Source of the DNA: Protoeuglena noctilucae
Taxonomy: Eukaryota
Direction of reading: 5' to 3'
NCBI GenBank assembly: GCA_958009085.1
Contig: OY253683.1
Span: 62,001-126,000 of the forward strand
Length of the DNA stretch: 64,000 bases
Part shown: one piece after another, positions 16,568 to 62,416 of the stretch
Position numbering within the stretch: position 1 is the first letter of the stretch
Layout of the letters: every line of letters begins with the position of its first letter
Program-made: the position numbers and the translations under genes
The notes under the pieces: model-generated
What the model saw: only the letters and a program-made list of their open reading frames with translations
Told to the model about the DNA's origin: nothing
Databases searched by the model: none

Positions 16568-17917
16568 ATGAAATTTTTCGGCAATTTGCTCGGAGCGAAG
16601 CGTGGAGGGCTGTGCGGGAAGGAGATGCAAGTGGGCCCGTTCTCCATCAAGATCGGAGAGGGTGAGAACACGCACCGCGCACGCGACGGGGACGCTGGCC
16701 AGCGTTCGGGGCACAGTGGCACCGCTCGCCGGCCGGCCAATCAATCGACGCGCGCAGAAGGCCCCTGCTCGAACGAAGAGTCTCTCATTTCGTGCAGCCT
16801 TCGCGGAGGGAGGCTACGGGTCCATCTACCACGCCACGGACCGAACGACGGGCGAGGCGATGGCCCTCAAGCACGTGATGATTATGGACAGCTCCGACAT
16901 CCGCGAATGCATTCAGAAGGAGATCTCCATTTTGGAAACCCTGGCGAGTCCCGCGGCCACGCCGATCGCGCCGACTAGGAGCCCCTGCGGTGTCGCGCGC
17001 ATCTCGGGGCCGTCCCGACCTCCTCCGGCGATTTAACGAACCGTCGCCGTCGTAGATATCTGCTTTGGTAACTCGATACCTCGTGCAGTCACTCATCGCC
17101 TCGATCCCGCCCGCTGCGCGCAGCGTGGACAGCAGTCCATTGTGCGCCTCCACGCCCACTGCTTCGTGGGGCAGAAGGAGTCGGAGGCCGCGTTTCTGCT
17201 CATGGAGTACTGCCCTAGAAGCCTCGTGGAGCATTTGACGACCTCGAACGTCAGGTGCGCAGGCGGCGCGGCGTTTGGTGCCCCACCCGGCGAACCCACG
17301 CTCGCAGTTGCTCCACGCGGCCCCGACGGCCCGCGCCTCACCCGCAGTGAGGAAGAGAAGCTGGCGATCTTTGCCCAGGTCTGCCAGGGCATCGCGACGA
17401 TGCACGCGGAGTCGCCCCCGGCCACGCACCGCGACGTCAAGGCCGAGAACGTGCTGCAGCAGGCGGACGGCCACTGGTGCCTCTGCGATTTCGGCTCGAC
17501 GTCCTTCTTCGAGGGCCAGATCGGCTCGCACCAGGTCCTGGCCCAGCAAGAGACGCAGATCCAGCGCATGACGACACCCGCGTACCGTGCGCCCGAGCTT
17601 TGGAACCTGGTGAGGCCACCCTGCCCCTCGTGGCCCCAACGGAGACGGCCACGGCGACCTGTCGCGCCCATCTCCGCCCCCCTGTCCTCTGTGCAGTACC
17701 TGGGCCAGCGCATCGGCCCCAAGTCGGACGTCTGGGCGCTCGGGTGCCTGCTGTACTGGATGCTCACGAACGGCCAGCGGCTGCCCTTCGACAACGCGAG
17801 TCAGGTCGCCGTCCACACGGGGCAGTTCAGCCCCCCGCCCGGTGCCAGCCCGGCTGCCAAGTCTCTGGTGGAGGCGGCGCTGAGGGTCAGCGTGGACGAG
17901 CGGCCCGACGCGTTCAC
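16568..17917 (+). CDS. NAK-family (AAK1/BMP2K/GAK-like) Ser/Thr protein kinase, truncated by the assembly gap
   Basis: AEGGYGSIY, ALKHV, LLMEYC, HRDVKAENVL, LCDFGS, TTPAYRAPE, IGPKSDVWALGCLLY. The AEGGF/Y loop, CDFGS and TTPxYRAPE are NAK-family signatures. One intron has a GC donor (16944). Confidence 0.88.
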
Positions 17918-18117
17918 NNNNNNNNNNNNNNNNNNNNNNNNNNNNNNNNNNNNNNNNNNNNNNNNNNNNNNNNNNNNNNNNNNNNNNNNNNNNNNNNNNN
18001 NNNNNNNNNNNNNNNNNNNNNNNNNNNNNNNNNNNNNNNNNNNNNNNNNNNNNNNNNNNNNNNNNNNNNNNNNNNNNNNNNNNNNNNNNNNNNNNNNNNN
18101 NNNNNNNNNNNNNNNNN
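17918..18117. other. Assembly gap (200 N)
   Basis: A run of exactly 200 n characters. The round length suggests a placeholder of unknown true size. Confidence 0.99.
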
Positions 18118-19295
18118 GCACTACCGCGCGCAGAGGTGGCAGGAGGCGGCGCAGGCATACTCAGAGGCCGCTGGGGGGGCGAGCTGCTGGGGGGTCCACC
18201 CGTGGTGGCGGCCGTGCTGCACAGCAACCGGGCGGCGTGCTTCCAGAGCATGGGGCGCATGACGGACGCGCTGGCGGACGCCTGTCGCGCCCACGCCCTG
18301 TGCCCCACCTACCCCCGGGCGCTGAGCCGCCTGGCCTCCCTCCTCATGCTCGTGCGGCGTGCCGACGACGCCACCACGCACCTCCGCGCACTCCAGCGGC
18401 TGCCGGGATGCGGCGCGGACGTCCAGGGTGACGGCTGCGGCCCCAGAGCGCAGCATGTCTCGCGCGCTGCCCTGCCCCGCCCTCACCCTCTCTTCATTCC
18501 CTGTGGCCTGCAGCAGCGTCTGGTCGAGGCGGAGCGCGCCCAGAGGGCCGCCTGGCCTCCGGACCACTTTAAGCTCCTGGGCCTGCCCGAGACGTGCAGC
18601 ACGGCGGACGTGCGCAAGGCGTACAAGCGGTGTGCGCTCGAGCTGCACCCGGACAAGGCGGTCATGCGGTGCGGGGGGCGCGTCGGTGGGGCAGCCGGGT
18701 TCGGGCCCCTGGCTGTGTGGGCCGAGGGGGGCTGGGAGGAGCGGGCGAGGGAGCTCGCGGACTGGCTGTTCAAGTGCCTGGGGGAGGCCCACGACTGCCT
18801 CGTCGACGAGGTGAGGACGAGGGTGCAGCATGCGTGATTGCAAGAGCTGTGTGTCATGGCACTGGCCTGCGTCTGAGACGAACTCGTATGTCTCTCTTGC
18901 AGACTGCGAGGTTCACGTTCGAGGGACAGCACATGGACGCATTGCGAGGCGCCCAGCGCGGCGGTCACCGAATGGGCAGGCGAGGGATGGCGAAGTGGCT
19001 TGGCAGGGTACAGCGTGCGCGTGTGTGGGTGTGCGGCCTACCTGCAGGGCACCGCACATTTGCCGCTTGGGTCCGCCGACGCAGGTCGCGATCGGATCGC
19101 AGCGCGTATGGGTACGGGAGGAGGGGTGGGCGCCAGGGGAGCTTCGGATATGGGGGCTTCCACCAGGGCGGTGGTTCGCGTGGGTTCTACGACCAGTGGG
19201 GCTTCGATTTTTCGGAGATGCCTGAGACGTTCCGCGACAAGTACGAGGGCTACGGTTTTGAGTACGAGTTTGATGACGCAGACATCTATTGGTAG
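18118..19295 (+). CDS. TPR + J-domain (DnaJ/DNAJC7-like) co-chaperone, 3' part
   Basis: TPR-like YRAQRWQEAAQAYSEA...AVLHSNRAACFQSMG...ALADA...PTYPRALSRLA. J-domain DHFKLLGL...VRKAYKRCALELHPDK...LFKCLGEAHDCL. G/F/Y-rich tail ends DADIYW*. An apparent frame offset near 18170-18190 (G-run) may be a sequencing error. Confidence 0.82.
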
Positions 19296-19566
19296 CCGTG
19301 GCACGCGCCACCGCCAGCTCTGGCATGCGCACTGGCTGGCGGTGCCGTGGAGCATCCGTCGTGCTACCCAGCTACTCGTGGCTAGTTGTCGCATGCATTT
19401 CAAACGCGGTCGCAAGATGATGGGAGCTGCTTGATCGGCAGACACAGACACAAACGCGAAGCAGGGCTGGCGGGTCGTTTGGACCGCTGCTCCGCTCTAC
19501 ATGATGGCGGTGCGGCACAGCGCAGCCCCTTGCGCCCCAGGTCACTCCACGCTTCGAACGCGCAGC

Positions 19567-20341
19567 TCAGGAGTGCAGATAGATGTTTGGCTGCATGGCG
19601 CCGATGGCGAGGTACATCCTGCATGACGGGCCAGAGGCGGCTCCTCAGCCAGGGCCGCTGCACCCTGGCTCGCTGCATGCACGCATCAAGACAACACACG
19701 CAGAGACGCCCGCGCGGAACGCACCCGTTCGAGCTCTTGTCGAGCGTGATGTGGCTCGCGATGCGGCTCGTCTCCCGCACGTCGCCCCTGTTGACCAGCC
19801 GGCCCAGTGTCCTCTTCTCCAACGCGTCCGGCGAAGGCAGCGCGGCGTGCCACTCCTTGGACAAAATGACGTGCACGTCCACCTCCCCCGGCAGCATCTC
19901 GTCCTTGTACGAGTTGGTCCTGCGCCTCGGCGAGACAACTGTCCGCGACCCCTTCCCCAACGATTAGCAACGAGTTCATCGCCCGCACGAAGCCTGCGGG
20001 CGCGCCTCCGCGCCGCGGAGGGGGCGTTTTGGTGCCGCGACTCACAAGTTGAGCAGGTTGGCCTGCTGCAGCGCCGCGGAAAGCGAGTCCCCCTCGAACG
20101 CCCGCACGATAGTCCGCTCGCCCTTCTCCGTCACGCACATGAACGAAATCCTGCGACGCAAGGTGCTCCCTTGACGTGGCGTCGCCGTGCGGGCATCAGG
20201 CCCGCGCGAGAACCTCCGCTTCTCCCCCACGCGCACTCACACTCGCTCATAGACCGTCGGGGTGCGGCCGTTGTGGCTCGACGAGCTGTGGCTTCCGAAC
20301 GAGCGCAATGCCTGGGCGAACCGCCGGCCCACGGACGCCAT
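19567..20341 (-). CDS. Mitochondrial complex I ferredoxin-like bridge subunit (NUOP3 / C1-FDX-like), lacking Fe-S cysteines
   Basis: Four exons splice to MASVGRRFAQALRSF...RTPTVYERVISFMCVTEKGERTIVRAFEGDSLSAALQQANLLNLTNSYKDEMLPGEVDVHVILSKEWHAALP...SRIASHITLDKSSNGMYLAIGAMQP...*. This is an adrenodoxin-like pattern with a mitochondrial presequence-like start. It is not visible as one ORF in the track. Confidence 0.7.
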
Positions 20342-22668: not shown

Positions 22669-25600
22669 TCACTCATCCCCCTCCTCCTCCTCCTCTCCCT
22701 CCTCATCTCCCTCCTCATCGCCCTCGTTGTCGTCATCACCGTCCTCATCAGCCGCGGCGCCGGACCCCAGCACCCCGCTCACGGTCTCCTTCATCCCACG
22801 CACGGCCGCCGCGGTCGCCTCGTGCGCGCGCCTCACGGCGGCGTCCGTGGCCACCTGCGCGCACAACGAGCATCGCCACGATGATCGAGATGATTCAAAA
22901 GTGGTGGTTTTTGAAAGAAACACCACCGCACCCGCCGGCAGTGCTGCGGCGGCGTCTCGTCTGTTACAACACAGCCAGCCATGCGCCCCGCACCTTGAGC
23001 GTCGTCCCGACCGTCAGCGCCCCCTCCCACCCCCTCTCCCGCGCCTCCTCCGCCACCGCCGCCAGTCTCTCCAGGAGCTCCTCTGCCGAGGTGGCCACGA
23101 CCGCCGACCCACGCCCCACGCGCGCGGGGATGTCCAGCAGCCACACATCCTTCATGAGACCGGGCACGGCCGGCAGGAGCAGCGCCATGAAGACCGTGGG
23201 CGCCATGAGGCCCACCATGGGGCCCGACAGGAGCGACTGGGCCCCCATCACCTTCGCAAACTTTTGGAGGGCGGTGTATTCGACGTACGCGGCCCAGGCG
23301 AGGAGAGCCACGGACACGGGGTGCGCAGAGGCCATGAACAGGGCCGGGAGGTACTGCGGGGGCGGCGGGGTGTGCACGTGTCTCGCTCAGCGTCTCTCTC
23401 TTTGAGCGATGTGGGTAGGCGGGGGCTACGACAGGCAGCGAGCGATGGAGAGGAAGGGTCGTTGTGGTATCAGATACCCACAGAGACGGTGCGGAAACAG
23501 CAACAGTAAGTTCCTTGTACCAACGGTGAATTTTGCGAAGTGTCCCGCCAAGACCTCACCAGGTCATGCGCCGGCATCGGCCCCAGCATCCGCCGCACGG
23601 CGCGGATGGCCGCGGGGGTCGCAGGGACCGGGGGGGTGGCCCCGGCGGCCGTCTTCGCATCGCGGGGTGTCTTGGGCTCCTCCGCGGCCGCCGCACCGCG
23701 CCGGCGGCTTGCGGTGCGCTTGGGCTGCACGGCCTGACCGTCGGTGTCAGGCTCGCTCACTGCAGACTTGGAGGCCCCCCGGCGGGGCGCGGAAGCTGCG
23801 GGGAACACCAAGGGCATTGCACCTGTCCGCCAAAGCACCTGCATGCCACCCGCTGCGGCGGGGGTGCTGTGGGTTGCCACGGCCAGGACCGCCCACAATG
23901 GTGTGACGCGGTGCATGCCATGACCATGCGCCACTACAACCAATGCGCCCGCTCACCCGCTCCCTTGCCCGTGGAGTAGGGCGTGAGGACCGCCACGGCC
24001 TCGCGGGTGTCCCGGGCCTGCCGCGCGCGCACGCCCATCTGCGTCCCCCCCAGCGTGAAGGCCGCGAAGGCCACCAGGGCCAGCAGGGCCGTCAGCTGCA
24101 CAAGCAGAGACAGTGGGGAAATCGGTCACATTCTCCATGCAGAGACCACACTTAGGAATGCAATCCGTGAAAGCAGATGCCGGTGCTATGCTGCCCGGGA
24201 CTTCACGATGCACCCCTCTCAACAGGCAGGCGTGCGTGCCCACATCCTGCGCAAGCGTGGTGTTCCATGCAACACCATCTCCCCACCTGCTCGAGCGTCA
24301 TGAGGACCACGTCCGGCAGCACCACGGTGGTGACCTTGCCCTCCAGGTTGCGGTACACGATGCCCCACCAGAAGAGCACCGGGTGCAGGCCCTCAAAGTC
24401 ATCTGTGGGAGAGGAGAGAGACGAGCGAAGCTGCGTCACGCAACTGTGTGCGACATGCTGGGCTGCGGTGGGATGGCGTCTTGAATGCATTCTTGTTGCC
24501 TTTGTCACTCATGCCCGACATGCCGAGCCCCTGCCCCTGCAGGAGCACCGCAGTCGGCACAGCGTAACACCAATTGCCGCGCCACTCATGACACTCACGA
24601 GCGGCGTTGAGGATGGACCCGAATGCCCAGGGCATCATGGCGGCGGCGAGGACGAGGAAGAGCAGGGCGTTGCGGGACGGCGCGACCTGGGCGGCCAGGC
24701 AGAGGCGGTAGGGGATGCCGGCGATGAGGGACCCCACCGTCCACCGGGGGTCACCCAGGATCTGAGAGAAGAAGGGGTGGCGGGCCAGGTGTTATGCAGG
24801 CGAGGTGCTCATACAGGCGAAGATGCTTGTGCAAGCCACGTGCTCATGCTGCGGTGCGACGAGGCTGTGCCCGTCGCAGGGTGGTCGCACAAGTGCCATG
24901 CTCTCTCGAGCCCCAGCACTGCTGGGGCTCTATCGAGAACCGCTACGAGCGATGAGCCGCACCTGGGATTCGGCCGGGAGGTCGGCGCCGGGGATGGTGG
25001 CGCGCGGGGTCAGAGGCGGGCTGACGACGTCGGACTTGCGCGCCTCGCCCGCCGCTCCCGGCCCCGCAGGGGGTGAGCCGTACACGGCCCGCTCCATGAC
25101 CCGCATGAGGGGCGTGGCGGAGACGAGCCAGGGCAGGGCGATGAGGGCCATGGACGCGGCCCATAGGGCAATGGAGATGTAGAAATGCTGGTAGGTGGTC
25201 TTCATGGCGAGGACCAGGCGCTCGGCCCAGGTGTGCCGGATGGGCTCCGTGGACGTGCTCTGCGTGGAGGACGTGTACGTGCCCGGGCGGCGCACCGTGA
25301 GCATGGCGGACGTGGAGGTGTGGCCGTCGCGGTCCGTCATGACGGCCTGGGGGGGCGCGCCGGGGGCAGAGATTGAGCGGCCTATCTCGTGCCTGACTTG
25401 ATACTAGCAGATTGCACTCCTCGGTGTTATAGCCCGCCGACTGGAGGGTCAGCAGCGCGCCTAGGGTGGACAGCCGCCCCACCCCTCGCCCTCGCCTGCA
25501 CGGTCAGGTTGCCCCGGCACCCCGCGATCTCGGCCGTGGGCCACTGCCCGACGAAGAGGTTGGAGTAGGAGCCCGCGTAGGCGAGGCGCAGGCTGCCGCG

Positions 25601-28257: not shown

Positions 28258-31200
28258 ATGGCGAACTTCATCACTCCCAACTGCATTCCCGTCCTGGCGT
28301 CGAATGAGCAGCACCGCATCCAGGCCACGGTGCAGGTCACAGGTGCGCTGCCGCGTGGGGCGCCTCACCGAGCCTCCTCTGTATCGAGATGAAGCGGGTT
28401 TTGCTTGCGTGTGCCGCGCTGGCGCTCCCTGGGGGTCCCCTGGACTCCCTGGCCGGCTGCACTCGCGTGGGCCGGCCACGCTGAGCTTGCTGGCCCGGCC
28501 GCGGTCCCGAGGCGCCTCCCGCGCTCGCGCTCGCAACGCCGGCCGAATCTTGTATCGTCACTCGCTTGTTGTGGCCACCGCGGTGCTTTCCGGCCGGTTC
28601 AGGGGCTTCCCGGGGCTGCGTGCTCCACGGTCGCAGAGCCTCGCCTCTCAGGAACGAGCGACCTCCTCGTTTGCCACCGCCTTCGCGCTGTGGCGTCCTT
28701 GTGTTCGAATGCGTTCGTTTGGCGCCGCCCTTTGCGCCCGCGCGCCCCCACCGTCGCCGGCCATGAGCACAACTGGGGACGACCGCGCATATGCCCGCAG
28801 ATGTCCGCCTCCTGACCTCCACGTCGGCGGTGAACGGCGTCCAGAACCGCTACAGGCTGGAAATCTCGGACGGCTCCCACACGTGCGTCGCGATGCTCGC
28901 CACCCAGCTCAACCCGCTAGCAGAGGTGCGGACAGCTGGGCGCACCCACGCCCCGCGCCTTCCCGCCCCGCGCCGCCGCCCCCGTGGTTGTTTGCGTTAC
29001 GAAGCTGCCGTTACCAACCCGCGCTGGACGCTCCGGGCCCCGCGGCGCGGCCTTTATCTGCTGCGCTGTGGACGCTGCGCTCCAGAGCTCACCGCCCCGC
29101 CCCGCGCAGAGGGGCGACATCCGCGTCAACTCGATCATCCGCATCAAGGAGTCGTTGACGAGCGACGTGCGCAAGGGCGACGTGGGCAAGAAGTGCAACA
29201 TCGTCATCCTCCTCGACGTCGAGGTCGTCGCCACGAACGCCGCCCTGGTGGGCCGGCCCGAGCCCTACGTGGAGGGCGGCCAGGCCGTCTCCACGCACCA
29301 GGTCCCCGCGCGCGCGCTTGCCTCGCGCTGCCCCGCCGCACCTGGCACCTGGCCTGCGGCTCACGCTTGGGACCATGGTCGTGCCCCCAGCAGGTGTCCC
29401 CGATGGGCCAGCCGGACGCCAAGCGCGCGCGCATCGAGCCGTCCGCCGGCGGTCCCGGCTCCTACGGTGGCCCCGGCGCTTACGGCGCCCCCCCCGCGTC
29501 CTTCGCGTCCCACGGCGCGGTGGTGCGCAACACGGCCGACGCCCGGATCGTGCCCCTCAAGAAGCTCACGCCCTTCCAGAACCGCTGGACGATCAAGGCG
29601 CGCGTTACGTCCAAGCCGGACATGCGCACATTCAGCAACGCCCGCGGCGAGGGCCGGCTCTTCTCCTTCGACCTCACGGACAGCGACGGGGGCGAGGTGC
29701 GTGGGGCTGAGACGCAGTCGCATGCGACGATGAGGGAGGGCAGAGAACGTGCCGCGCGCGCGATTCGAACTTGTTGCGTGGTGCTTACGTGGTCGCATGC
29801 AGTGACGAGGGGGGGCAGCGAACCCGCCGCGTGCGTGATACGAATCCGCTATGCTCTTTGCCTCATCTCAGATCCGCGTGACGGCGTGGAAGGAGACGGC
29901 GGACCGCTTCTTCCCGCTGGTGGAGGTGGGCAAGGTGTACCAGATCTCCAAAGGCCGCCTGCAGCCGGCGCGGAAGCAGTACAACCACCTCAAGCACGAG
30001 TACGAGATTACGCTTGAGAACACCTCCGAGCTGGAGCTGTGCCCGGACGACGGCGCCATCCCCGCCATCAGCTTCAGCTTCGTGCGGATCGAGGAGGTTC
30101 AGGGCAAGGCGGCGGGGGACATGGTGGACGTCATCGGCGTGGTGGAGTCGGTCGACCCGTGGACGGAGATCACGCGCAAGAACACGGGCACGAGCGTGCA
30201 GAAGCGCAGCGTGACGGTGCGCGACGCCTCGAACCACTCGGTCGAGGTCACGCTCTGGGGGCAGCTGGCCACGGGGGACGTGGGGCAGCAGCTTGAGACG
30301 CTCGCGGCCTCGCGGCCCATCCTCGCCGTCAAGGGAGCCAGGCGAGAGGCGGGGGAGGGTAGCGGTTGGGGTTCGCCATTGGGTGTGTGCCGCAGTCGCC
30401 CTCCATGTTAGACCGCACTGACCGCTGCTTTCGGCCGTGTGCTTCGCCAGGCGTTGATGCGTTGATTAGGGAGTGCAATAGCAACATGGCAGGCCACTTG
30501 GCGACGCCGATGCTGACAAGCGTCCGTTTGTCCCTCTCGCAGGGTGGGCGACTTCAACGGCAAGACGCTGTCGACGATCAGCAGCTCGACGGTGCTGGTG
30601 AACCCGGACATCCCCGAGGCCACGGAGGTCAAGCTGTGGTACACCGAGTACGGGTCGACGCAGCAGGCGGCGGCGCTGTCGGGCCGGGGCGGCGGGAACG
30701 ACGAGACGTCCGCCGCCAACGCGGGCAAGCGCCGCTCGACACTGTCGATGATCGCGGACGAGGGCATGGCGCAGGACGGCTCGACGGTGTGGACGTCGGT
30801 GCTGGCGACCGTGCAGTACGTCAAGACTGACAACATGTTCTATCCCGCGTGCACCAACACCCGCAACGGGCGCCAGTGCAACAAGAAGCTCGTCGAGCAG
30901 AACGGCGGCATGTTCTGCGAGACGTGCTCCGTCGTCGTCGAGCCCGAGGTGAGGGATGTGGCATATACCACAGCGCGTGGTGCGAGATGCGCGGCACGGA
31001 TCGCAGCGCCATGCGCGTGTGCCAGCGTCGCACCAGCCCCTCCGTTCCCTCCGCAGTACCGCTACATCGCCAGCATCCAAATCTCGGACTTCACCGGCTG
31101 CCGGTACGTCACGGCCTTCCAGGAGGCGGGCACGGAGGTCTTCGGCATGACCGCCAACGAGATGCACGCCAAGCAGGAGGCCGCGGAGATGGAAGCCGGT

Positions 31201-32188: not shown

Positions 32189-33610
32189 CTAAGTCTCCAT
32201 GGCTTCCCCGTGCTCCCCGTTCTCCTGGCCCACGCGGATGCTGCAAATGGCCGAGATCGTTCCAAAGTCAACTCAGCATCACCCATTGGCACGGCCCCAT
32301 TGTCGCCTGGTGCAAAGCCATGAGACCGGACAAGCCGCGAGTGGCCAATCACAACTCGCCTGGCAGGCATCTCCCCCATCCTCAGGGCGCGCTCCAGCTC
32401 CTCGACCTCTTGCACCGTCGTCGCATTCGCAATCTGCGCGCGGCAACCGCACCAGCTCACAACCCACTCCCACAACAGTCGTGCCGTCGCATGTGCACTC
32501 GTGCCACGCAACCCCGCGCGGCCTCACCATCGCCCGCAGTGCCGTCGACTCCTCCGCCGTCAGCGCCCTCTTGCCCCCCGCGGGCTGCGCCTCCCCGCGC
32601 TCCTCCGCCCCCGCCCCCGCCATGTCCTCGTCTGCCGGCGGACCCATCACCTCTGGCACCCCCTCCCCTGGCACAAACTCCCCGTCCACCCTGGCCCCAA
32701 TCTCCCCCTTCTTGTGCAGGTCCTGCGCCAGCTTCCGCTCCCCCTGCCTCACGCGCGCGAAGTCCAGCCACCGCAGCTGCGGCACGGCGTGGATGACGCT
32801 CGATCGGTAGAAGCGCAGCTTGGTGACGGGGTTGTCTATGAGGGAGAGGTGGCGGAGGGACTTGAGCCGGCCCAGCGCCTCCACGTCCTCGATGCGCGAG
32901 ATGCGGTTGTTCGTCAACACCAGCGTCTCCAAGCGGGGCAGGCTGCGCTCGAGGTTGGCGACGCTGATGCGGGAGATGCGGTTGTTGTTCAGCAGGAGCA
33001 TGGACAGACGGGGCAGCGACGGGAAGCCGTCCAGCACGACGATGGCGTTGTCCGTCAGGTCTGCGAGGCACGCGCGTGAGGAGGGTGCATTGCGTGGGGC
33101 GACGGGGACGGGAGCCACCACGCCGCAGGCGCAGCGCGGGCCTCTCTCGCGCCGATAAGGGCTCGGACAGTGAACTAGATGCACAGAGTCGGGGGTAAAG
33201 GCCCCGCGGGTAGCCCTGGCGCGGCCCAGGCGGCTCCACGCTGCGGCCAAGGGATGCAAGGCCCAGCTCCTCACCGATGCAGTCAAACTGGTTCTCTGTG
33301 ACGCCCAAGTTCTCTATGGCCCCAATCTTATTTCCTCGCAAGTCCAGCTCGTACTCCCTGCGGCGGCAGGGCGGCGGAATTCGCCCGAAATCCCCCGGCG
33401 GGCTCGAGCAGGCACCCCGCAGCGCGTGGACGCCCGCCCGGCGCCGAGCCGCCGTGAGCTCAGCGAAGGCACGCGACGCATCCCGTACTCCCCCACGGCT
33501 CGCCTGATCGCGTTCAGGAACTGGGGGGACCGCATGACCAAGTCGGCCGTGAGCCTCCCGAGCAGCCTGGGGCCCAGGCTGGGCACCCGGGCCCCATCTG
33601 TCCCCGCCAT
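32189..33610 (-). CDS. SNRPA1: U2 snRNP protein A'
   Basis: RLTADLVMRSPQFLNAIR|EYELDLRGNKIGAIENLGVTENQFDCI|DLTDNAIVVLDGFPSLPRL...LIDNPV...YRSSVIHAVPQLRWLDF...|IANATTVQEVEELERAL...|IRVGQENGEHGEAMET*. Two of the four introns have GC donors (33503, 32359). Confidence 0.94.
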
Positions 33611-37100: not shown

Positions 37101-38818
37101 CGCGCGCCGCTCCAACCTTCGCCACCGCCCCATCGGCATCGGCGTGCAGGTGAGAGGAGGGGTGCTTGTGCTTGCTGCATGCAGTGGCGCTCGCCATGCA
37201 CCCAAGGCGGCGTTTGGTGCATGGACAGGTCCCGCCTGCTTGGAGTAGTTGCCTCGACTCGTCCACTTGCCCCTCGCTGCTCCGTTGTTGTAGCACCGGC
37301 GCCTGTGACTGGCGGCAGCAAGGCGCTGACATCGCCGCTCACCCGCTTGCCTCGCCTCGCCACCCCCGCAGGGCCTGGCCGACACCTTCATCCTCCTGGG
37401 CATGCCCTTCGACTCCGAGGAGGCCCGGCAGCTCAACCGCGACATCTTCGAGGCCATTTACTACGGCGCACTCCGCGCGTCGTGCGCCTTGGCCGCAGCT
37501 GAGGGTCCCTACGAGACTTACGAGGGGTGCCCGGTGTCCAAGGGCCAGCTGCAGTTCGACATGTGGGGCGTGGAGCCCAGCTCCCGCTTCGACTGGCCCT
37601 CGCTTCGCCAGGACATCAGTCAGCACGGCGTGCGCAACTCGCTCCTCCTCGCCCCGATGCCCACGGCCTCGACCTCCCAGATCCTCGGCAACAACGAGTG
37701 CTTCGAGCCCTTCACCTCCAACATCTACGTGCGGCGCGTCCTGTCCGGGGAGTTCACCGTCGTCAACCAACACCTGCTGAGCGGTGAGCGGAGTGGCTGC
37801 GATGTCATGGTGTCTTGGTCCAGGCTAAGCCTTGCCTCCGACCTCCTCGGCTGCGCCATCGAGAGCCAGCTGCTGCTGGCATCGCTGCCCGTCCTGGCGC
37901 GGCGCTTGGGCGCTCAACATTGCGAGCGTTGATGTTGACAAAACGTCGACAGCCGCTCTGCCCCATCGTGCCCCCCTGCAGACTTGACCCGCATGGACCT
38001 GTGGAATGCGGACCTGAAGAACGAGATGGTGGCGGCCAACGGGTCGGTGGCGGCGCTGGACATCCCCGACAACCTCAAGGACATTTACAAGACAGTTTGG
38101 GAGATCAAGCAGAAGGCGAGGGATGATGCGATGGGTGATGCTGGTGTTGATGACGATGCGGTGTCGATTCCATCCCAACTGTGCATCGGTGCTGCGCTGT
38201 GCCAATGCGTCTCTTCATGTCACCCTCCTTGCGTGCTGCGACGGTACCTGTCGTGTTGCACATTGCGTCACCCCTGTCGTACAGTGACACCACAACGCTC
38301 TTGTGCACCTCCCCTGCAGGTGCTGGTGGACATGGCGGCGGACCGCGGTGCCTACATCGACCAGTCCCAGTCCTTCAACGTGCACATGAGCGACCCCAAC
38401 TTCGGCAAGCTCACCTCGCTCCACTTCCACGCCTGGCGCAAGGGCCTCAAGACGGGCATGTACTACCTCCGCACGCGCGCGGCCGCGGACGCCATCAAGT
38501 TCACCGTCGACCAGCAGGCGCTCAAGGCCAAGCAGGTGAGGCACACACAGCGCTCGGGTGGCAGGGCACTTGACACGCTCAGTCAGAAAACACTGCTGCT
38601 CACACTCAGCGTCTCTCTCGCGGCGCCTGTTGCGTCTCATCCCAATCGTTCCCTTCCCTTCCTCCTCTTCGCAGGCCAACCGCACGCCCACTGCCACGAG
38701 GTCTGCGGAGAAGAAGCCAGCCGCGGCCGCTGCCCCCGCGCTCGACCGTGAGGCCGAGTTAGCCAAGATGGTGTGCTCTCTGGAGAACAAGGATGCCTGC
38801 CTCATGTGCGGGTCTTAA
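34173..38818 (+). CDS. RNR1: Ribonucleoside-diphosphate reductase large subunit (class Ia)
   Basis: ATP cone [95 protein letters not shown]-terminal [14 protein letters not shown]. Plant-type insert [15 protein letters not shown]. One GC donor (38116). Confidence 0.98.
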
Positions 38819-39174: not shown

Positions 39175-40798
39175 TCACTCCGCGTCGTGCATGTATGAAT
39201 CGAACAGCAACAGGACGCGCTCGTTGAAGATGTGGCGCTGCTGACGCGCGACCCTCTCCTCCTCCCTCTCCCTCTCCTCCCTCTCGCTCTCGCTGTCGCC
39301 ATCGCTATTGCTGCCCATGACCTCCACGTCCCCCAACACCACATCCACATCCCATCGCTTCTGCTCCTCCTGACACAGCCTCTCCTTCGCCTCCCTCTCT
39401 TTCAAATGCTCCCTCTCCCACTCCTCCCTGTCCTCCCTCTCCCATCGCTCCCACTCCTCCATATCCACTCTCTCTTCCCCATCGCTCTCGCCCTCGCTGC
39501 GCACCACCTCCACCTCCCCAGCCACCCCAGCCGCCTCCCCTCCCCGCTCCCAGGGGCGCGCCCCCTTAACATCCACCTCCGCCCCTTCCCTCTGCGCACG
39601 AGCGTGACCCGGGCGCATATCCCCATACAACCCATGCCCCCTTGTCGCCTCGTCCAGCATCGCCGACGCAGACGTTGCCCCAAACGCGCCCCCGCCCTCG
39701 ACACCACCCATCCCGGCCACCGTAGACCCCACGCCCTCGTCGAACAGAGGGTCCCCGATGTCACCCTCGGGCATCTCGTCCGTCTCCGAAAGCGGCCTCT
39801 GATAACTGTCGCTGTCGCCGGCAAACACAACGGGGTCCTCGTGCACCACCCCGGCCCCGTGCCGCTGCACCGAGCGCTCGAGGGAAGGAGCCCTGCGCAC
39901 GAAGGGACAACGTTAATGTCAATGTCAAGAAGCACCGTTTGGATAGATGCAAGGTTAGAGCGGGATTCATGCGGCTGCAACAGGGTCAGGTGCCTGGCGC
40001 AAGGGACTGCGTGGGTCACTGGGGCTCACTGGCCGGAGGAGGAGCCACGCAGGTGCAGGGAGGGCGTCACGCGCCTCGAATCGTCGTAGATCCACCTCTT
40101 CAGTGGCTGGAAAGCGGCGCCAGAGAGGCCCATGCGACTGGCGGGACTGGCGAGCAGGCGAAGCGCGATCGTGATCACCACCACAAGCAAGGCCACGCCA
40201 TCCTCTGTTAATTGTCAAGCACAGATACTGATAAAACGCAGTCAGTCACCTTGGTGCCAACCGGCGCTCAGGCTCCGAATCCTCCACAGCAAATGCCTCC
40301 GTCACCACGCCCTCCCGGCACGGGCACGGGCCTGCGTGAACGACAGCCCATGCCTCCCCGACCTCGTCCCACTCAAGCACGACGGCCAACACGTCAGGTG
40401 CCTGCGCGGCAGAAAGAGGATGCGCGCAGTCGCACGATGCAGCAAAGGGACACGTGGGCTGTGCGTATTGCAAGCCTGGCCCCTCGCCTCGTCCGCAGCG
40501 TCGGGCATCTTCACGCGGAGAAACGCGAGATCTTCACTGTCTGCACGGCAGGAGACGAGGCCGTGGTCTTATCGTGTCGCACCGAGCATGTGCTTGGGTG
40601 CGGGGCAAGCGCTCGGCTAGTGCACCGCGTACCCGCAAGCCTGACGTCCTCCAGCAGCTCGCTCGCATCGAAGGTCTCGCGACAGAGGAAACCCCGGACA
40701 GCCTCCTCTATGAGAGGGAGGACGGGCGAAGCAACGCCAGGCCGCTTTCCACGCGCTGGCAGAGGGCCCCGGGGCAGGGGACATGGCCCAGCCTGCAT
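39175..40798 (-). CDS. Hypothetical acidic, E/R-rich multi-exon protein
   Basis: Terminal exon ORF 39175-39893 (EEWERWEREDREEWEREH...). Candidate upstream exons ~40798-40633, ~40401-40250 and ~40147-40029 are bounded by GT/AG. No family recognised. Confidence 0.45.
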
Positions 40799-47200: not shown

Positions 47201-50200
47201 CGACTCCCCAGACACCTCGTAGGGGATGCCCTTGGGGTGGTCGGCCGGGTCGCGCTCGGAGATGTGCACGGCGATCTGCTCGGCGAACTGGCGGCGCCCG
47301 TCGGCCTTGAACACCACCTTGATCGCCTGGGTCTGCCCCGGCTGCACCACGGCCTGCGCCGGCTCAAAGACGAACTGGCCCACCGTGAGGTTGGGCGGCG
47401 GCGGGGGAGCCTTGGCGGCGTCTGCGGGCTTCTCCGGGGGCGCGGCGCCGGCCTTGAGGAGCGCGAGCGTGAAGGGGAAGTCGCCGTTGTTGCGGATGTT
47501 GATGGTGCGGGGCGCCGAGTCGGTCGAGTAGACGTTGGGGCCGAAGTTGAGGCCGCGGGCGGGCGTGATGGTGTACTTGGAGAAAACGGCGCGGAGGCTG
47601 ACGGGGACCGGGATGGTCGTCTCCGTGTTGTCGTTCAGTGGCTCGATGATGTGCAGCGACAGGTGGTTGTTCTCCACCAACGTCACCTGCGGATGACAGC
47701 ACACAGGGTGGGTGTCTCGAGACAGCAGTATGGGTGGTTGTGCATGGGTCCCTGCTGTGCACGCAGTCAGCCGTTCCAGCGTATCTACGGCTTGCTTGGC
47801 AGCGCCAGATCGCGACAGCAATCGCTGCAAGGGCCCCTACTACAAATGCGCATACACGTGCATCCACCATGGACTCGCCTCTGTCTTGAGGGTCTTGGTG
47901 GGGTTGAGCGTGACCTTGATCTCCGCCTTGCCGTTCGGATTAATCTTCCCCTTCTGTGGCTCCACGGCAATGAGGTCCTTGAGCACGTTGCCGCGCATGG
48001 CCACGCTGAAGGCCACCTCGTACTTGCCCGTGTTGGCCAGCACCAGGCTCCTCGTCTCCGTGTCATCAACACGGACGGTGCCGAAGTCGATCCCCGGCTT
48101 ATCTGCTGCCGGGTACTGCACGTCGGTGCTGATGGCGTAGGCCTCGCCCGCGATGACGATGGTCGCGTCCTGCGCGACGGGCATCACGCCCCGCTCGTCC
48201 TGCACCCGCAGCGACACGGACCCGGCCACCTGCCGGGGCGTCTTGGCCGCCAGCTCCACCCGCACCGTCGCGGCTTCCCTGGCTGGCAGCACGCCCTCGG
48301 TGGGGGACACGGACAGCTCCGGTGGCAGGTCCGCCACCTTGTCAAGCCACCACTTGACCGGGAGCAGCGAGTGGTTGTGCAGCTCGAACGTCCGCGTGTC
48401 GCGCTTGCCCAGCAGCAGCCGCTGGAACTTGATGCCCTCCTTGCCGTCCTTGCCCATGCCGCGTATCTCGACGTCGGGCTTGGTGCCCACTGCCCGCAGC
48501 GGCACCACCACAGGCTCCGGGTTCAGCGCCACCGAGCACACGAGCGCGTCCGCGATCTTCTCCACCTTGCCCGGGAACGCAAACACCTGCGGGGGCGCGG
48601 GCCAGCAGGCGTGGGACAGTGGTGGCATGGTCGGCAACTCCACAGCCGGCGTTGGTGTCCACTGCACTGTCGTCACACAGTCGGTGGCTATGCGAACCAA
48701 TAACAATGACAGTAACATGATTTGAATCCATTACTCGCCTGCAGGTCCTGCGTCTCGTCGACCTTGAGCCCCATGGTCGCCGGCCGCACGATGAACTCGT
48801 TGGTCTCCGCCAGCCCCAGCTCTCCCTCCTTCTTGACGGTGCTCTTGAGCCAGAAGCTCGCCTTCAGATCGAAGAGGCCGTTGTTGGTGATGCGGAACTG
48901 CGCCGTGTGCTCCGGGTGCTTGCCGTCCAGGTAGCCCTCCTTGTTGCGGCCGGCCAGCAGCGGGCCAAAGTCAAACACCTGGGAAGGTGGGGCAGATGGT
49001 TGCGGCAGGTGAGTGGCGGTGGGGGAGCTGGTGCCGGGGAGAACGAACAGCAGCAAGCATTCGTGAAAGCAAGCGACTGGCATCGCAGTGCGACCGGGGA
49101 GGTGTGGCCATCGACACCCCTGCGTGCGTGTGTCGACCCACGCACCTCCTCAGAGATGACGAACTGCTTGGATATGGTGGGCGTGGAGGGCCTCCCGCGG
49201 ATCTTCCGATAGAACATGTTGCGGAAATCAGTCGAGATCTGAGGATAGGCGCACGTGCCGGCGCACGACAGGTCCAGCTGGTTGCCGCCGCGGGCCTCTA
49301 AGCCAAACCGCTCCATGAACGTGCCGATGTCCGCGCTCTTGAAGTGCACCTGCGGATGTTTATGCAAATTGCAACGTCGATGGCCCGCAGCGATTCGCTT
49401 ATATGCTCGCAGCTTTGCATGGCGTGCTGTGTTCAGGCCAAGTGTACGCACCTCGAGCTGCACGCGCTCGCCCGGCTGCAGGACCCATCGGGACTCGCGA
49501 GAAAGGGCGATCTTGGGGTCCGCGGCGGGGTCCGGGGTCTTCGTGGGCCTCCCCGCGGGTGCCTTGGCCTTGGCCGCCTCTGCCGCCAGACGCGCCACCT
49601 CCTCCGCCGACCTCTCGCGGACCGTGAAGACCTCGAAGTGCGTCGGAGACTGCGGGGAGAGTCGTTAGGGTGAGAAGGGAGTCATGACAGCATCAAGACA
49701 GCGCATTCAATGCACATGCAGTGCATCTAGTGTGTAACCAGCGGTGCCCTATGTACATAGAGCACGATCTCAAGCACAGAGCCCGCCTCCGCTGACCTGG
49801 CGCTTGGGCCGGGACCGAGGCTTCTTGACGATCTCCAACGTGAAGTCGGGCGGGATGAGGAGGCGGTCGCGGTCGACGCGGGGAAGGCGCGTGGTGAGCT
49901 TCCCCAGGTCAAACTCGATGCCCACCGCGCTGCGCAGGACCTCGTCCTCGCCAGCCGCGGCCGACACCGTCACCACCTCGACGGTCGCCGAGGGGCCCTT
50001 GCCGCCCGGCCCCATCCCTGCCGCCGCTCTCAGTGCGTCCGGCGTCCCCTCCTGCTCCCACTCCCGATACAGCGCCAGCAGCTCGTCCGTGAGCCCCGCC
50101 TCCGCCCCCGCGTCCGCCTTCTCCGCGGCCTTGTCGGCCTTGCCGCCCTTCCCGCCCTTCTCCACCTTAAGCGCCTTCTGCGTGCTCCCGCCTTTGAGCT

Positions 50201-53200: not shown

Positions 53201-56200
53201 CGTGACGACGTTGGGCCGCGTGAGGCGGGACAAGTTGACCACGTAGTTGAATGGCACGCGACCCGTGTTCTGCAAATCGCAACGGAGAGAGAGTTTGGGC
53301 TTGTGTCAGCGAGAGGCAGGCTCTCCACGCAAGCGCCCCGAACTGGGATTACTGTGCGCGTCAGCCATAGCCACCGCAACGCATCCACACGACACGTCAA
53401 CCACCCATCCCGCCCTCGCCCGTCACGCACCTGCAAGCAGACCTCCGTGTCGATGGCCCGATTGTACTGCTGCCGACCAATGTCGACGTGGTGGCGGTCA
53501 ATGGAGAAGCGGATGTGGGAGGACTCCGCACTGAGCCGGACCTCGTAGGAGGGACCACCCGTGACATTGCACACGGCCCAGCAGGACGAGCATGCGTTGG
53601 GGTTGGCGTAGTACGTCGCCTCGATGCGCTCGCTCGCGCCGGGCGCCAACGTGCCGTGCACCGGCAGAATGTCGAACACCTCCCCGGGCGGCAGGTACAC
53701 GGGCCCCTGCTTGCGCTCTTTCACGTCCTCCTCCGGCTGCATCGCCAACGACCATTCGTAGGCCGCGGGGACGCTGGAGACGTTGGTGATGGTGAAGTAG
53801 CGGCGCTCCAACGTGTCTGTCAGGACACAGCCGAAGTCGAGCGTGTCCACTTGCACCTTGAGGTTCGGGAAGTTGATCTCGCCCACTAAATCGACCTGGT
53901 CGCGGTGGGGGCAGTCCAGGTACGAGATCTGCAGCGACGGAGAGGAGGGGCTGTGTGAATGGGGCAGACCAGACCGCATGCGAAGGGTACTGTGCGTGTG
54001 ACACCATCCCAACACGACCTGCTCTGCCCTGCCACCGCCATCCTAACCCGGACATCGCACCGCCCGCCAGCACCCCAGCCCCGCCATCCACTCGCCTGCA
54101 GCTTCCCCGCCACGACCGCCGACTGTTTGTCGGTGCGGAACCCCGGGTCGAACTCGACCACGAGCTCCTCGTCCTGCCCCGGCTCCAGCAGCATCTCCAG
54201 CTTGCTGAGCGTGAAGGGCGGCAGCGTCTTGAGCATCAGGGTGAGGGGGATCTCCGTGACGTTCCGCAACGTCAGGGCCGACTCCATCGGCGCCAGAATT
54301 GAGTCCTCGGACCACATGTACGTGAAGGTGAGCTTGTTCGAGGACAGCTCGAGCAGCGGCTGCGTGCACTCGGCCCGGAAGTCCGCCTTGAAGATGTCCT
54401 TGGTCACGTTGCCCATGCTGGCGCGGAGGTGCACGCGCTCCGTGAAGACGCCCTGCGCCGTGGACAGGCCGGACACCAGCACCATCTGCGCGAACGAAGG
54501 GAGATATATGAGCTGAGAGGGTTGCAGGGAGGGTTAGCGCTGCTCAGAGGGCAAAAGCGGTCGGGGCGCGTCAAACGCTGGTGAGCACTGCACCCCTCGC
54601 ACCTGCGTCTGCCGGGGGTTGATGATGCACCGATCGGGGGTGAAGGAGAAGACGACCTCCGGCACATCCTCCGTCTCGGCGCCTTTCGGCGCCGCACCAC
54701 CCGCCTGGGAGCCTGCCACGCCCACGGTCGCAGTGGCCGCGTTGGTCGCCCCCGCCCCGTTGGCCCCGGCCGTGGCGCCCGCGTTGGTCCCGGAGAGCAC
54801 CGACCCCGACGGCTCTTCGTCCGGCGTCCGCTTCTTCTTGCTCTGCTTCTGCTTGATCATCTTGCTGATCACGTCCTTCATCGTGTTGTGCCACAACACA
54901 GTCTGGGGGCGGCGGCCCATGTTCCGCAGCACCACCTGCGCCTCGAAGGGACGCCCCACGAGCTGCTTCCCGAAGTCCAAAACGTCCTCCACCCCCTCCA
55001 CCACGATGCAGGTGCCCGTGCCGACCGCCTGGAGCGGCACTGACACATCGTCCCCGTCCTGCGGAAAAGACGATCGAATTGGATGCAATCAGATCGGACA
55101 TCGGTCAAATAGAGCACTGGTTATGGTCACGTTGACGACGCGCCGGGCCCGCAGCGTCGGCAGGGACGGGCCAATCGGGCGACGCTTGTCGATGTCGTAA
55201 CAATCCATCTATTGCCACAACAGATGTCTGGACATGGCAATGGCAGCCCCGCACGTCGCCGTCGCTCACCTGCACGAGCACGTGCAGGAGGTCGGTGAAC
55301 TTGCGTGTGTCGTCCATCGTGCACATGACGTCGACGGCCAGGGTGGCCCCCGGCTGCAGCAGCCCCTCGCGGGGGCTGATGCTGAACACGGAGGTGGGGC
55401 TCTCGACGAAAGCCTTAAAGGAGGCCGGGACGGGGCAGGGGTTGAAGATGTTCAGCACGCGGGTGTTGGCCCGCAGCACCGGGCAGGACCCGAAGTCGAG
55501 GTGCGCGCGCGTGGACCGCTTTTCCTTCGGCTGGTCTGCCTGGAAGAACTCGAGGGCCGGGCCGATCGAGCGGGCGCTCATGACGCACTCGAGAGGGTCG
55601 GCGTCGGACCCGAAGATGCGGATGCGCACGGGAAGCTGCATGCGGCCGCGGCGCGCTGTGGACAGCACGACCGTCACGGCCGTCTGGCCCATCGCGGGTA
55701 CGCCGCCCAGCGCGGGCTCGCAGCGGATCGACCCGAGGTTCTTCGACTGGTCGTCCTGGGGCAGTACCTGCGGGGGAAGCGGGGTGGCTGGGGTGGGCTG
55801 GCTGTCGGTGCAGGTGCTTGCATGTGGCCGGTGGCGTGGCAGGCATGCATCGGCACAAGGCACCCCGTCGCATGGCACTCGGACAAAGCGCGACGCGACT
55901 CGCCTCGAACTTGGCCGGGAGCTGGCTCTCGTTGACGAGGGTGATGGTCTGCTTGTAGGGGAACTGCAGGAAGCAGTCGCCATAGTCGATGTTGTCGCGG
56001 TTGAGTTTGATGCCGGGGACGAAGCTCTGGGCCCGGATGGGGATGCTCTGCAGCTGCCGTCCGACGCCAGGGACGTCCACTGGGTGAGGAGGGAGAGGGT
56101 GGTGGCTGGTCAGACACACCAGGCACGGCTCAGCACGTGCGGCAGACCAGACGTAACATGTGATGGGAGGCACTGAGGAGATGGCTTGGAGTCTCTCACC

Positions 56201-59012: not shown

Positions 59013-59740
59013 GCTGGCAATGCTCCCTTGCCGTCGGCCGCACGAGGCCCCTGCGCAGCGATTTTGAACCGAACAAGTGAGAAATGGGAGCTCTCTGGGG
59101 ATCGGCAGTTGCGCTGGGGCGGCCAGATGGACACGCATGTCAGCAGGTACGCAACCCCGCTGCAACTGCTGTGGATGCGCTGCGGGGCGACAGCGACGCG
59201 CGCGCGCGGTGTTGGGATGAGAAGAATCGGGCAGTGCGCTCCCATCCCTCGGAGCGCTGCGCCGGCCTGCTGACATTTTGAGCAGCGACGCGGCACGGGC
59301 GCCACGCCGCCCTACAGGGCTGAAAGCCCGGCTAGCCTGCACTGCTGCGCCGCTTGAATCTAGAAGGCCGTACAAATGCCCAATGCGATGTCTCACCGGC
59401 GCTATGCCATGCGTGCTTGTGGCAGCCACACCCTATGTCTCGAAACAAACAAGCCCGCTCGTGACGCTAGTGCGGGGGTCAACTACATGCATGCGCTAAA
59501 GTGTTTGCATGCGCTCAGCAGGGCCCCTACGTGTACACGCCCAGTCCGACAAAACAAGCAGTCAGGAAACAGAGGCGCGAAGGGGGCGAGGTTGGGAGGA
59601 TATTGTCGCAAATGCGAAGAACAGAGCCGCAATGTGCGTGGAGACGTATGTGCGTGGCGACGTATGTGGAAGGAAGCTCTCGCGCAGTCCAGCAGCGCAG
59701 GGCGCCGTGGCAGTGGCGCGGCGGGGACCCCGGCGTCCCC

Positions 59741-62416
59741 CTACTCGTCCTGGACGCTCCGTCCCCCGAGCAGCGCAGGGGCGCTGTGGCAGCGGCGCGG
59801 CGGGGAGCCAGGCAAACGCGGCGCCATGGTCCCCAGCGCGAGGCGCAGGGACTCGTCGAAAACCGCGTCGGCCGCCCCCGTCTCCATGTCGCCCTTGCCC
59901 TTGACCCAGACCGTGTCGCGCTGGAAGCGGTCCCGCACGTCGGCGGGCAGCAGCGCCATGGTCTCTGCGGTGACGTGCACGAATCCCGCCGGGCAGGTGG
60001 AGTGCATGCGCGAAGCCAGGTTGACGGTGTCGCCCGTCAGCGTCAGGAAGTTGCGCGTGTGTCCGATAACCCCCGCAGCCACGGGCCCCGTGTGCATCCC
60101 GATGAGCAGCGACAGGCCTTGCGGGAAGGGCCTCGCCTCCTCGATGGTTTCGGGCGCGTCGATCCACGACGCCACGGCCGCCAGGTCGAACGCGGCGCGC
60201 AGGGCGGACGTGGCGTGGTCCGCGTCGTCCTCCACCAGATTGGCGCAGGCGATGTAGGCGTCCCCCACGGTGGCCAGCGTGGCGAGGCCGTGGCGCGCCA
60301 TCACGTCGTCAGCGCGGGCGAAGAAGGCGTGGAGCAGGTGCAGGGCCGGGGTGGCGTCCTCGACGGCCGACAGTTTGTCGATGCCGTGGATGCTGGCGAA
60401 GAGCACCGTGACGCGGTCGTACTGCCGGTAGTAGACGAGCCGGCAGGGGCCGGCGGGGGCCGCGTCGCGCGCGTCCGGTTGGTCCATGCTCGCCTGGGCC
60501 GTCAGGACTTCGACCTGCTCGTCGATGGCGGTGGCCAGGGACGGCCGCACGTCGTGTCGGCCCGAGAGGGCGCCGGAGTCGGCGGAGATAGCGTGGACCC
60601 ACCCCGACGGCGACGTCGGGGAGTGGAAGGGCGTCGGCATGTCGTGGGCAGTGGTCGTGCGCGACAGAGACCCGGGGGCCCTGCCGTCCCCGGACCGGCC
60701 TTGGCAAGTGCCGCACGTCCTCGCGCGGATGCGCTCGTTGATGAGGGCCCGGGCAACCTCGTTGGGCACGAAGCGCTCCAGCACTTGCTCGCGGTCGGCG
60801 ACCATGGCTGCGGTGCGCAGCTGGCTGTGCCCGGACGACAGCAGGCCCAGCGTGACCACCAGCATCGGGTCCATGACCGTGTCCTGCCCCGTCGTGAGGC
60901 GGTAGATGCACACGGTCAGCAGGAGGTACGCTGCGGGCGGCGGAAGCGAGCGCTGCGAGTGGCGCATGCCGACCTTCGCCGTCGCTGTGCTGTGGATCGC
61001 GAGCACCTCACCGATCCAGGGCACCACCGACTCGATCATGCGGCTTCCCGCCACCACCTCGTACACGTAGACGCAGTAGGCCCAGTTGAGGCGGTCCAGC
61101 CACGACTCCTCTGGGTTGCGCCGGCCCTCTTCCCACATCTGGCGCCGCGCCCTGACCTCCGCGCCCGGCGGCGGGTGCCAACAGAAGCCATACAGCGGCA
61201 CTAGCAGGGTGCGGTTGAGGAGGTCCACGATGGATCCACCCAGGACGTACTTGGTGAAACCCCAGCGCCAGGCGACCGCGTAGGTGAGGGAGCCGTTCTC
61301 AGCCAGGAATTGGAAGACGTAGCAGGCGACGACGTTGAAACAGAGCTGCGGAAATGGAGATGGCGGGCGTCTCGGGTGGATGGGGTATGGGCGGGCGGTG
61401 AACAGCACACAAATGTGCTGCATAGGCGGGTCATTGCTTGCTCTTCATCTCGCTCACCCTATGGTCGCCGCGCGAGAAGATGAGCAGCGCCATGGCCGTA
61501 GCGGAGGCGTGGCCGACGTGAATGATGGACAGGGCTGAGAGGCGCGTGTTGTACCGCCACACGCGCGCCCCGGCGATCTTGCTCAGGCCGCGAAGGAAGA
61601 CAATGAGGCTGCGGGGTCAGGGAGGTGACGTGGCGCGTTCATCGCTTTAAAGCACGGTGTCCCGCTTGTGAGCCACCGCAGCACACGCCTGAGGTACTGG
61701 CCCCTGTAGCGCATCATGAAGGCGCTGGTCGAGCGGTGCAGGTACGCGACCGTGCCCGTCACGACCAGCAGGACCGTCATCGCGACGATGAGCGCCACGG
61801 CCCGGCACTCCAGCTTGACCTGCGCCGACCGAGGAGTGGGCCAAGCAGTCACACGTGCTTCGGGATGCAGAGACGGTCTTGCCTGCGCCACTCGCCTTGT
61901 CGCAGACGTCCGGATCGACGCAGGGGCCGTAGGTGAGAGAGTAGTGGAACCACGGTACATAGATGATGCAGATGGCGCTCAGGAAAGCCATGCGCGCCGG
62001 AGTATCCATTACCATGTTCAAGCCCTCCTTGATGAAGGCACAGGAAGCTCCTGGGGGAATAAAAACCCTCTTTGATGAAAGTTTTAGAAGCATATAGAAG
62101 AGACAATGCCGGCTGCGTCGTAATCGAGCGGCTCCATCGCGGCTCAATCGCGGGCCGAGCTTTCTCGACGGCCCCGCCTCTGCCGCTCACGTTTGAGCCA
62201 GCAGGTGACGTGATCCCACACATGGCGCAAAGAACGCGCCATTCTGAGCCAGTAACAGGGTGGCTTGGGCTCGAAGGGGGCTCGGGAGCCGCCGGGCAGC
62301 CAACACGTCTTCAGCAGTTGAGGAGGGGTGCTGCTTAGTCCGTGGTGGCATCTGCGGCGACCGGAGGCCTCCACCGGCGCCTTCATAAGAATAATGTCGC
62401 TTCGATGCACCCACAT
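59741..62416 (-). CDS. Multi-pass membrane protein with a C-terminal class III nucleotidyl cyclase domain (degenerate active site)
   Basis: Hydrophobic exons, then S-helix-like EQVLERFVPNEVARAL and cyclase core VTVLFASIHG...TVGDAY...IGMHTGPVAAGVIG...GDTVNLASRMHS...VKGKGDMET. Start ATG is 62416 or 62386. One GC donor (61895). Confidence 0.85.

Follow-up and report, generated by a model that had tools for sequence, protein, structure and literature searches.

The window, that is, the whole stretch of 64,000 nucleotides (nt) analyzed here (positions 62,001-126,000 of contig 16 in a 26.3-Mb, 27-contig assembly; 67% GC), carries genes for a protein kinase, a DnaJ-domain protein, RPA1, U2A', RNR1, Hydin and a nucleotide cyclase, which contain many introns that start with GC instead of GT. 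The excess of GC-AG introns is confirmed as real and genome-wide, affecting about 1 intron in 6-8. A preliminary description of the window had listed 12 such donors. All 12 start with GCGAG on the strand given, and 11 follow an exonic AG, the donor at 16944 following CTG instead. Their frequency in the window is borne out by a gene-structure hidden Markov model (HMM), which places 16 GC introns among 110 by Viterbi decoding and 10 among 90 at a posterior of >0.9.

Eight of the 12 junctions are fixed independently of the gene model, one by RNA contigs and seven by protein alignment. The RPA1 intron (30342..30542, plus strand, 201 nt, phase 2, posterior 0.93) has the donor cag/GCGAGA, where the slash marks the exon end, and is flanked on both sides by Pfam RPA domains. 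Contigs from two metatranscriptome runs of one study (X1 and X2) skip these 201 nt with zero mismatches, and GC(30342)..AG(30542) is the sole canonical-type reading inside the 4-base slide of the joint. Among the joints listed (15 of 55), 14 are RNA joints (13 GT-AG and this GC-AG) and one is a repeat-like DNA joint; run X3 shows no joint among these 15.

The other seven junctions were placed with a spliced protein-to-DNA aligner written for this study, which demands AG at the acceptor and treats all donor dinucleotides as equal. In RNR1, both references choose the intron 38116..38319 (plus strand, aag/GCGAGG, 204 nt, phase 0), a GT-only alignment inserts 10 residues at this site, and foreign RNR1 transcripts span the intron with an agreeing letter count. 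Four introns of Hydin on the minus strand are each chosen by three of three references: 55768..55903 (gag/GCGAGT, 136 nt), 53929..54095 (cag/GCGAGT, 167 nt), 48587..48738 (cag/GCGAGT, 152 nt) and 47687..47878 (gag/GCGAGT, 192 nt), the last two also by the protein P0121. Intron 1 of U2A' (33358..33503, minus strand, cag/GCGAGC, 146 nt) is selected by six of eight references and is read through in P0233, a relative's protein. The kinase intron with the non-AG donor (16944..17123, plus strand, ctg/GCGAGT, 180 nt, posterior 0.97) is selected by 6 of 10 references; P0352 was rejected as a junction test for it, being 100% identical to the kinase exon but an unspliced read-through. GT-only alignments in this comparison set need insertions or drop conserved residues. 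GC is chosen at all eight junctions with informative RNA or homology.

The preliminary description had argued that the reading frame requires GC donors, which does not hold. A GT-only gene model stays in frame at all 12 junctions, either because another in-frame donor is close by or because exon ends are altered; the frame is therefore no proof by itself, and RNA and homology decide. The expectation that standard gene finders would mis-model these genes was correct, as GT-only prediction shifts these junctions. Since the resulting proteins are in frame and often of high posterior despite wrong junctions, annotation errors of this kind would be silent.

The gene model alone stands behind the remaining four donors, of which 18980, 25495 and 61895 have no reference protein for donor-blind alignment. 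The last intron of U2A' (32241..32359, minus strand, posterior 1.0) is probable; its donor is chosen by one of eight references, with a different acceptor, and is therefore not fixed by homology. Probable introns also lie in the cyclase gene (61820..61895, minus strand, posterior 1.0, with the cyclase domain downstream) and in the DnaJ-domain gene (18980..19084, plus strand, posterior 0.88, with a DnaJ match). A possible intron at 25347..25495 (minus strand, posterior 0.79) belongs to a gene earlier called TMEM62-like, a name that is unconfirmed: there is an in-frame GT 6 nt upstream at 25501, and Pfam gives no match on the two flanking exons. The model adds candidates absent from the earlier list, all on the minus strand: 40402..40487 (gag/GCGAGG, posterior 0.99), 61609..61688 with the atypical donor cag/GCGTGT (posterior 0.85), a weak and doubtful 57-nt candidate at 39592..39648 (gag/GCGACA, posterior 0.84) and a weak one at 4448..4628 (cag/GCGAGA, posterior 0.57).

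Genome-wide rate and donor context

The HMM was trained on GT donors only, after which C, A and G were allowed at position +2, each non-GT donor receiving an equal prior of 0.03 and GT-derived weights. The sample consists of 760 kb from 23 contigs (63-69% GC) plus the window; contigs L079 and L080 (38% and 29% GC), C24 and C25 lie outside it. At a posterior of >0.9, the full sample yields 1071 GT, 154 GC, 1 GA and 0 GG donors, a raw GC share of 12.6%. Viterbi decoding gives 1257 GT, 220 GC, 8 GA and 13 GG, and expectation maximization converged at 18% C. All 12 earlier-listed donors were found unprompted. In a spike-in experiment, 474 GT donors were changed to GA or GG and recovered with a recall of 0.45-0.69 in every context, which raises the GC share after correction to 17.5%. 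Decoy donors (GA or GG) make up 1 of 1226 at a posterior of >0.9, and AGG-N-GAG occurs equally often in coding sequence with A (64), G (63) or C (61) as N.

A genome-wide rate near 1%, with the window as a chance cluster, is not what the remaining contigs show: 144 of 1136 donors outside the window are GC (Wilson interval, 10.9-14.7%; p ~1e-96 versus 1.2%). The rate is homogeneous across the 24 segments (p=0.70), GC donors do not cluster by gene (p=0.22), and at least one occurs in 104 of the 267 gene models in the sample that have confident introns. Scaling from 1498 modeled introns per 824 kb suggests that the genome would hold about 6,000-8,000 GC-AG introns.

GC donors are set in a stronger consensus than GT donors. 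A at -2, G at -1, R at +3, A at +4, G at +5 and T at +6 occur in 95, 100, 100, 97, 99 and 38% of GC donors versus 58, 92, 98, 68, 89 and 23% of GT donors. That G at +3 mirrors the local GT donors, as had been proposed, is correct (94% among GT donors, 92% among GC donors). The uniform GCGAG start holds for the 12 listed donors but not genome-wide, as ag/GCAAG accounts for 12 of 154 GC donors. AG/GCGCG is rare (4 GC versus 132 GT). After correction, GC makes up ∼47% of donors in the class AG/G·RAG and 0-5% in the four other classes. Counted by the other Watson-Crick pairs with U1 small nuclear RNA (snRNA), in what we take to be the pairing register, the GC share rises from 0 of 30 donors with three pairs and 1 of 238 with four to 27 of 474 with five, 68 of 350 with six, 46 of 111 with seven and 12 of 21 with eight. 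With T placed at +2 in all sites, GC sites have a mean duplex energy with U1 of -11.1 kcal/mol, compared with -8.3 kcal/mol at GT sites. GC donors thus occur almost only among the strongest donors, and GA and GG are essentially absent. Recognition of 5' splice sites is not generally relaxed, and the proposed lineage-specific relaxation is to that extent not supported.

GC and GT introns are alike in length, acceptors and position in the gene, and no difference in branch-point motifs was found between them. GT at intron nt 9-40 is depleted after GC donors compared with recovered spikes (6.5 versus 9.0 per 100; p=4e-4), as are GTG and GAG directly downstream, a sign that GC donors stay weaker. 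A k-mer classifier weakly separates the first 40 nt (area under the curve, 0.66), its signal being G/GT depletion and no motif. A nucleosome-linker CpG pattern was rejected as a driver: the CG autocorrelation is aperiodic, and the observed/expected ratio of CpG is 0.95 overall, compared with 0.83 in introns.

Spliceosomal components and intron history

U1, U2, U5 and U6 are present with intact functional motifs. The U1 and U6 variants suggested by the preliminary description are not borne out: a single copy of U1 was found, with the canonical 5' start AUACUUACCUG, and a single copy of U6 with a canonical ACAGAGA box. U5 loop 1 is likewise canonical, and no variant of any of the three was found. 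A search for the U1 pattern with positions 5-7 left free returned the known U1 and one match unlike U1 by eye. By inspection, 10 bases at the 5' end of U2 pair with the diverged 3' segment of U6, an argument for this U6 being the working gene. The U6 gene (L002:1501-1970; contig 12, 80512 onward) has no 3' T run, the first TTTT lying ∼360 nt downstream. Like U1, U2 and U5, it carries the CCCCCGCTC element together with a TATA-like box, at a spacing ∼8 nt shorter; the 3' box of U1, U2 and U5 is missing from it. A relaxed tRNA scan for RNA polymerase III terminators gave mostly noise. U12-type introns were rejected, as the donors read GCRAG without an ATATCC-type donor; U6atac gave no match at E<=0.1 among the 45 of 497 candidates scored, in a search that did not include U11 and U12.

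A METTL16 homologue, U1C and one LUC7 locus are present. The Prp8 gene (L098:2255 to L099:2970, contig 14) has 14 introns, 2 of them GC-AG. A comparison with Prp8 chains of solved structures (human, 8xi2 and 8ro0, none of them from a pedinophyte) covered three of its 15 exons. The RNase H exon departs from residues common to all three chains at Q1816H, V1826T, A1837S, V1863A, M1868L, H1875N and P1912N (human numbering), and the exon covering 1506-1752 departs from residues common to human and 8xi2 at S1524T, I1566L, F1577M and S1588A. P1912 is presumably among the yeast splice-site suppressor positions; a literature search did not confirm this. At T524, R540, G654 and D1549, the positions of C. 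elegans 5' splice-site suppressors, Prp8 is unchanged. The substitutions are a lead and may be plain divergence.

Intron-intron similarity over at least 40 nt is seen for 1 of 154 GC and 8 of 1071 GT introns. Target duplications and inverted ends are not in excess among GC introns, and the slide and inverted-end distributions of GC introns match those of GT introns; the next exon starts with GC at 21 of 154 GC introns versus 38 of 229 matched GT introns. An introner origin was rejected on the lack of these marks among the sampled introns. As a positive control, the introns of L090 give 516 matches among 44 introns in a looser BLAST search. This metagenome locus (L090:575-16263) is the Hydin gene of another alga, with ∼44 mutually similar introns bearing GYAGGG...CCCT ends and target duplications, many with GC donors, which together mark an introner invasion; one of these introns lies at the same codon as the window intron 47878.

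Among relatives represented by DNA, the nearest, L084 (1153-15634; Hydin 61% identical), has 2 Hydin introns versus 26 in the window, both at shared positions and both GT, and GC donors at 0 of 7 modeled introns, too few to judge. In a second relative, an open frame of 2130 residues spans several of the window's Hydin intron positions; the three Hydin genes together point to large intron gain or loss inside one pedinophyte clade. Retention of just the 5'-most introns is a mark of intron loss, and this pattern in the relatives suggests loss there; gain in the lineage of the window is compatible with the tree. In U2A', an in-frame intron at the 33503 position is left in the reading frame of P0233, whose residues there imply a donor of the form GTGYG; this points to one GT/GC switch at a shared site. 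Comparison of orthologous positions, as proposed earlier, yields this one apparent switch.

Explanations for the GC donors

The GC-AG introns are probably ordinary U2-type introns in which T-to-C change at +2 is nearly neutral as long as pairing with U1 is in surplus. They would be spliced by canonical U1 and U6, with C at +2 costing one U1 pair, a loss tolerated only with spare pairing from an exonic AG and R-A-G at +3 to +5, and better tolerated with T at +6. T-to-C change at existing strong donors would then drift toward the local mutation equilibrium of ∼50% C in G-Y-G. The ceiling would follow from the high GC content, and the share from how common strong AG/G·RAG donors are; as this class makes up ∼30% of all donors, the genome-wide GC share reaches 13-18%. 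Leftover weakness of the donor would be compensated by T at +6 and by fewer rival GTs nearby. Of this, the analysis shows the rate, the restriction of GC to strong donors, canonical ends of the snRNAs and an absence of introner marks. The GC-biased T-to-C conversion of the preliminary description survives in part: a T-to-C switch at an existing site is the likeliest origin, but a strong push toward GC is unneeded because intron-interior G[C/T]G is only 51% C.

Several points weigh against this explanation. The strong donor class lies near the neutral expectation, with raw counts somewhat lower (140 of 369 and 186 of 430 GC in AG/G·RAG, under 51% at p=5e-7 and 0.001) and AG/GYGAGT higher (45 of 58 GC), so that C at +2 is not fully neutral. 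Direct RNA support covers one GC junction only, that of RPA1, the genome-wide counts derive from the study's own gene model, and the one documented GT/GC switch is read from residues only. Few introns of the window are kept in relatives (2 of 26 in Hydin), too few to show intron age. GC content alone is no predictor either, Micromonas RCC299 at 64% GC having 2.7% GC-AG introns and Chlorella NC64A at 67% GC 7.7%, which means that extra tolerance may be needed.

Such tolerance could come from a spliceosomal protein, be it Prp8, U1C, LUC7 or a proofreading helicase, that changed in this lineage so as to lower the penalty of C at +2. This is somewhat unlikely and would add to the pairing threshold, not replace it. 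It fits a rate higher than in the equally GC-rich Chlorella NC64A (p=3e-9), the ∼11 differing residues in the two Prp8 exons, the presence of one LUC7 locus and the suggestion by Iwata and Gotoh that proteins or RNA modification may be the cause in other algae (PMC3033335). GA and GG donors are not tolerated, however, the four C. elegans suppressor positions of Prp8 are unaltered, a METTL16 homologue is present, and the Prp8 substitutions may reflect plain divergence in the three exons compared. A sharper version, in which Prp8 RNase H/endonuclease substitutions make the spliceosome barely check +2 above a threshold of U1 pairing, without transposons or snRNA change, is unlikely. If true, it would provide a natural allele series for proofreading of +2 that could be read out in the ∼6,000-8,000 GC donors.

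A decidedly improbable source is an old burst of introners, of which the GC donors would be relics and in which elements with GY donors inserted after AG. GC donors occur in 53% of the IE-A1 elements of Micromonas pusilla (PMC3879977), AG precedes 95% of GC donors here, close relatives are intron-poor, and the classifier does weakly separate GC from GT introns. That signal is G/GT depletion, however, similarity is all but lacking among GC introns where the L090 control is positive, and the 5'-most retention in relatives suggests loss; the test sampled ∼3% of the genome, and full decay of the elements is compatible with it. Selection of GC donors as weak regulated sites favoring alternative splicing or retention, as proposed for mammals (PMC7242645), is very improbable, as there is no first-intron bias (12% versus 17%), the donors are random over genes, and they occur in the housekeeping genes RNR1, Prp8 and RPA1. 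A prediction artifact or a chance cluster, to which the in-frame GT-only parse and the single RNA-supported junction might point, is hardly credible given the choice of GC at every informative junction, the near absence of decoys and the equal rate on 23 contigs.

A GC-AG excess in GC-rich algae has been published (PMC3033335, PMC4028052), which the preliminary description overlooked. Shares reach 39.6% in Aureococcus, 22.2% in M. pusilla CCMP1545 and 7.65% in Chlorella NC64A, compared to 2.7% in RCC299, 2.4% in Volvox and 2.0% in Chlamydomonas reinhardtii; U1 was canonical in the three algae checked, and Iwata and Gotoh called the excess an enigma (PMC3033335). Emiliania huxleyi has 56-65% (PMC4028052). 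With 63-69% GC in the 23 samples and 12.6-17.5% GC-AG introns, the present genome groups with the algae of more than ∼64% GC whose GC-AG share far exceeds 2%. Chlorella NC64A is likewise a core chlorophyte of equal genomic GC (67.1%) with a raised share (PMC3033335), but the rate here is about twofold higher. M. pusilla CCMP1545 is also a GC-rich green alga with a canonical U1 5' end (PMC3033335), but its GC donors belong to IE-A1 (AG/GYGCGT) (PMC3879977), whereas those here belong to no repeat family. Aureococcus anophagefferens and Emiliania are GC-rich marine algae that share the U2-type GC-AG excess and ab initio mispredictions, although the lineages are unrelated and the rates higher there; GA donors, absent here, make up 4% of the curated junctions of Emiliania.

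In plants and animals, ordinary U2-type GC-AG introns likewise compensate by a strong flanking consensus. C at +2 is a mismatch to U1 in GC-AG introns (PMC7242645), and relative to the plant share of ∼1.2% (PMC6310983) the introns described here are 10-15 times commoner and carry G, not A, at +3. The genome is thus another case of a known algal phenomenon, to which it adds an apparently introner-free origin and a clean strength threshold. With a steep dose-response to U1 pairing and single-copy canonical snRNAs, the pairing needed to offset C at +2 becomes measurable across species. A literature search, which covered little subscription literature and not the supplements of the YPF701 preprint, gave no report of splice sites in pedinophytes; the main text of that preprint holds no splice-site data.

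Host and neighboring observations

The host is probably a marine pedinophyte, a placement taken from the Hydin tree. Among named homologues of Hydin, the best comes from Pedinophyceae sp. YPF-701 (50%), which also gives the best full-coverage match of the RNR1 exon (86%). FastTree analysis of a Hydin segment joins the window with the two relatives (support 1.00) and then with YPF-701 (0.95), and the RNR1 tree places it loosely at the base of the core chlorophytes (0.79). RNA matches to the window come from marine metatranscriptomes.

The two low-GC contigs L079 and L080 (contigs 26 and 27; 45 kb and 101 kb) are probably organelle genomes. In the window, a gap of 200 Ns (17918-18117) lies between the kinase and DnaJ genes; P0352, from another assembly, continues past it, which indicates sequence missing from the window. 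At 59741-63684 on the minus strand, the nucleotide cyclase gene, of membrane type and with a confirmed domain, adjoins a gene with a terminal domain that is receiver-like by eye.

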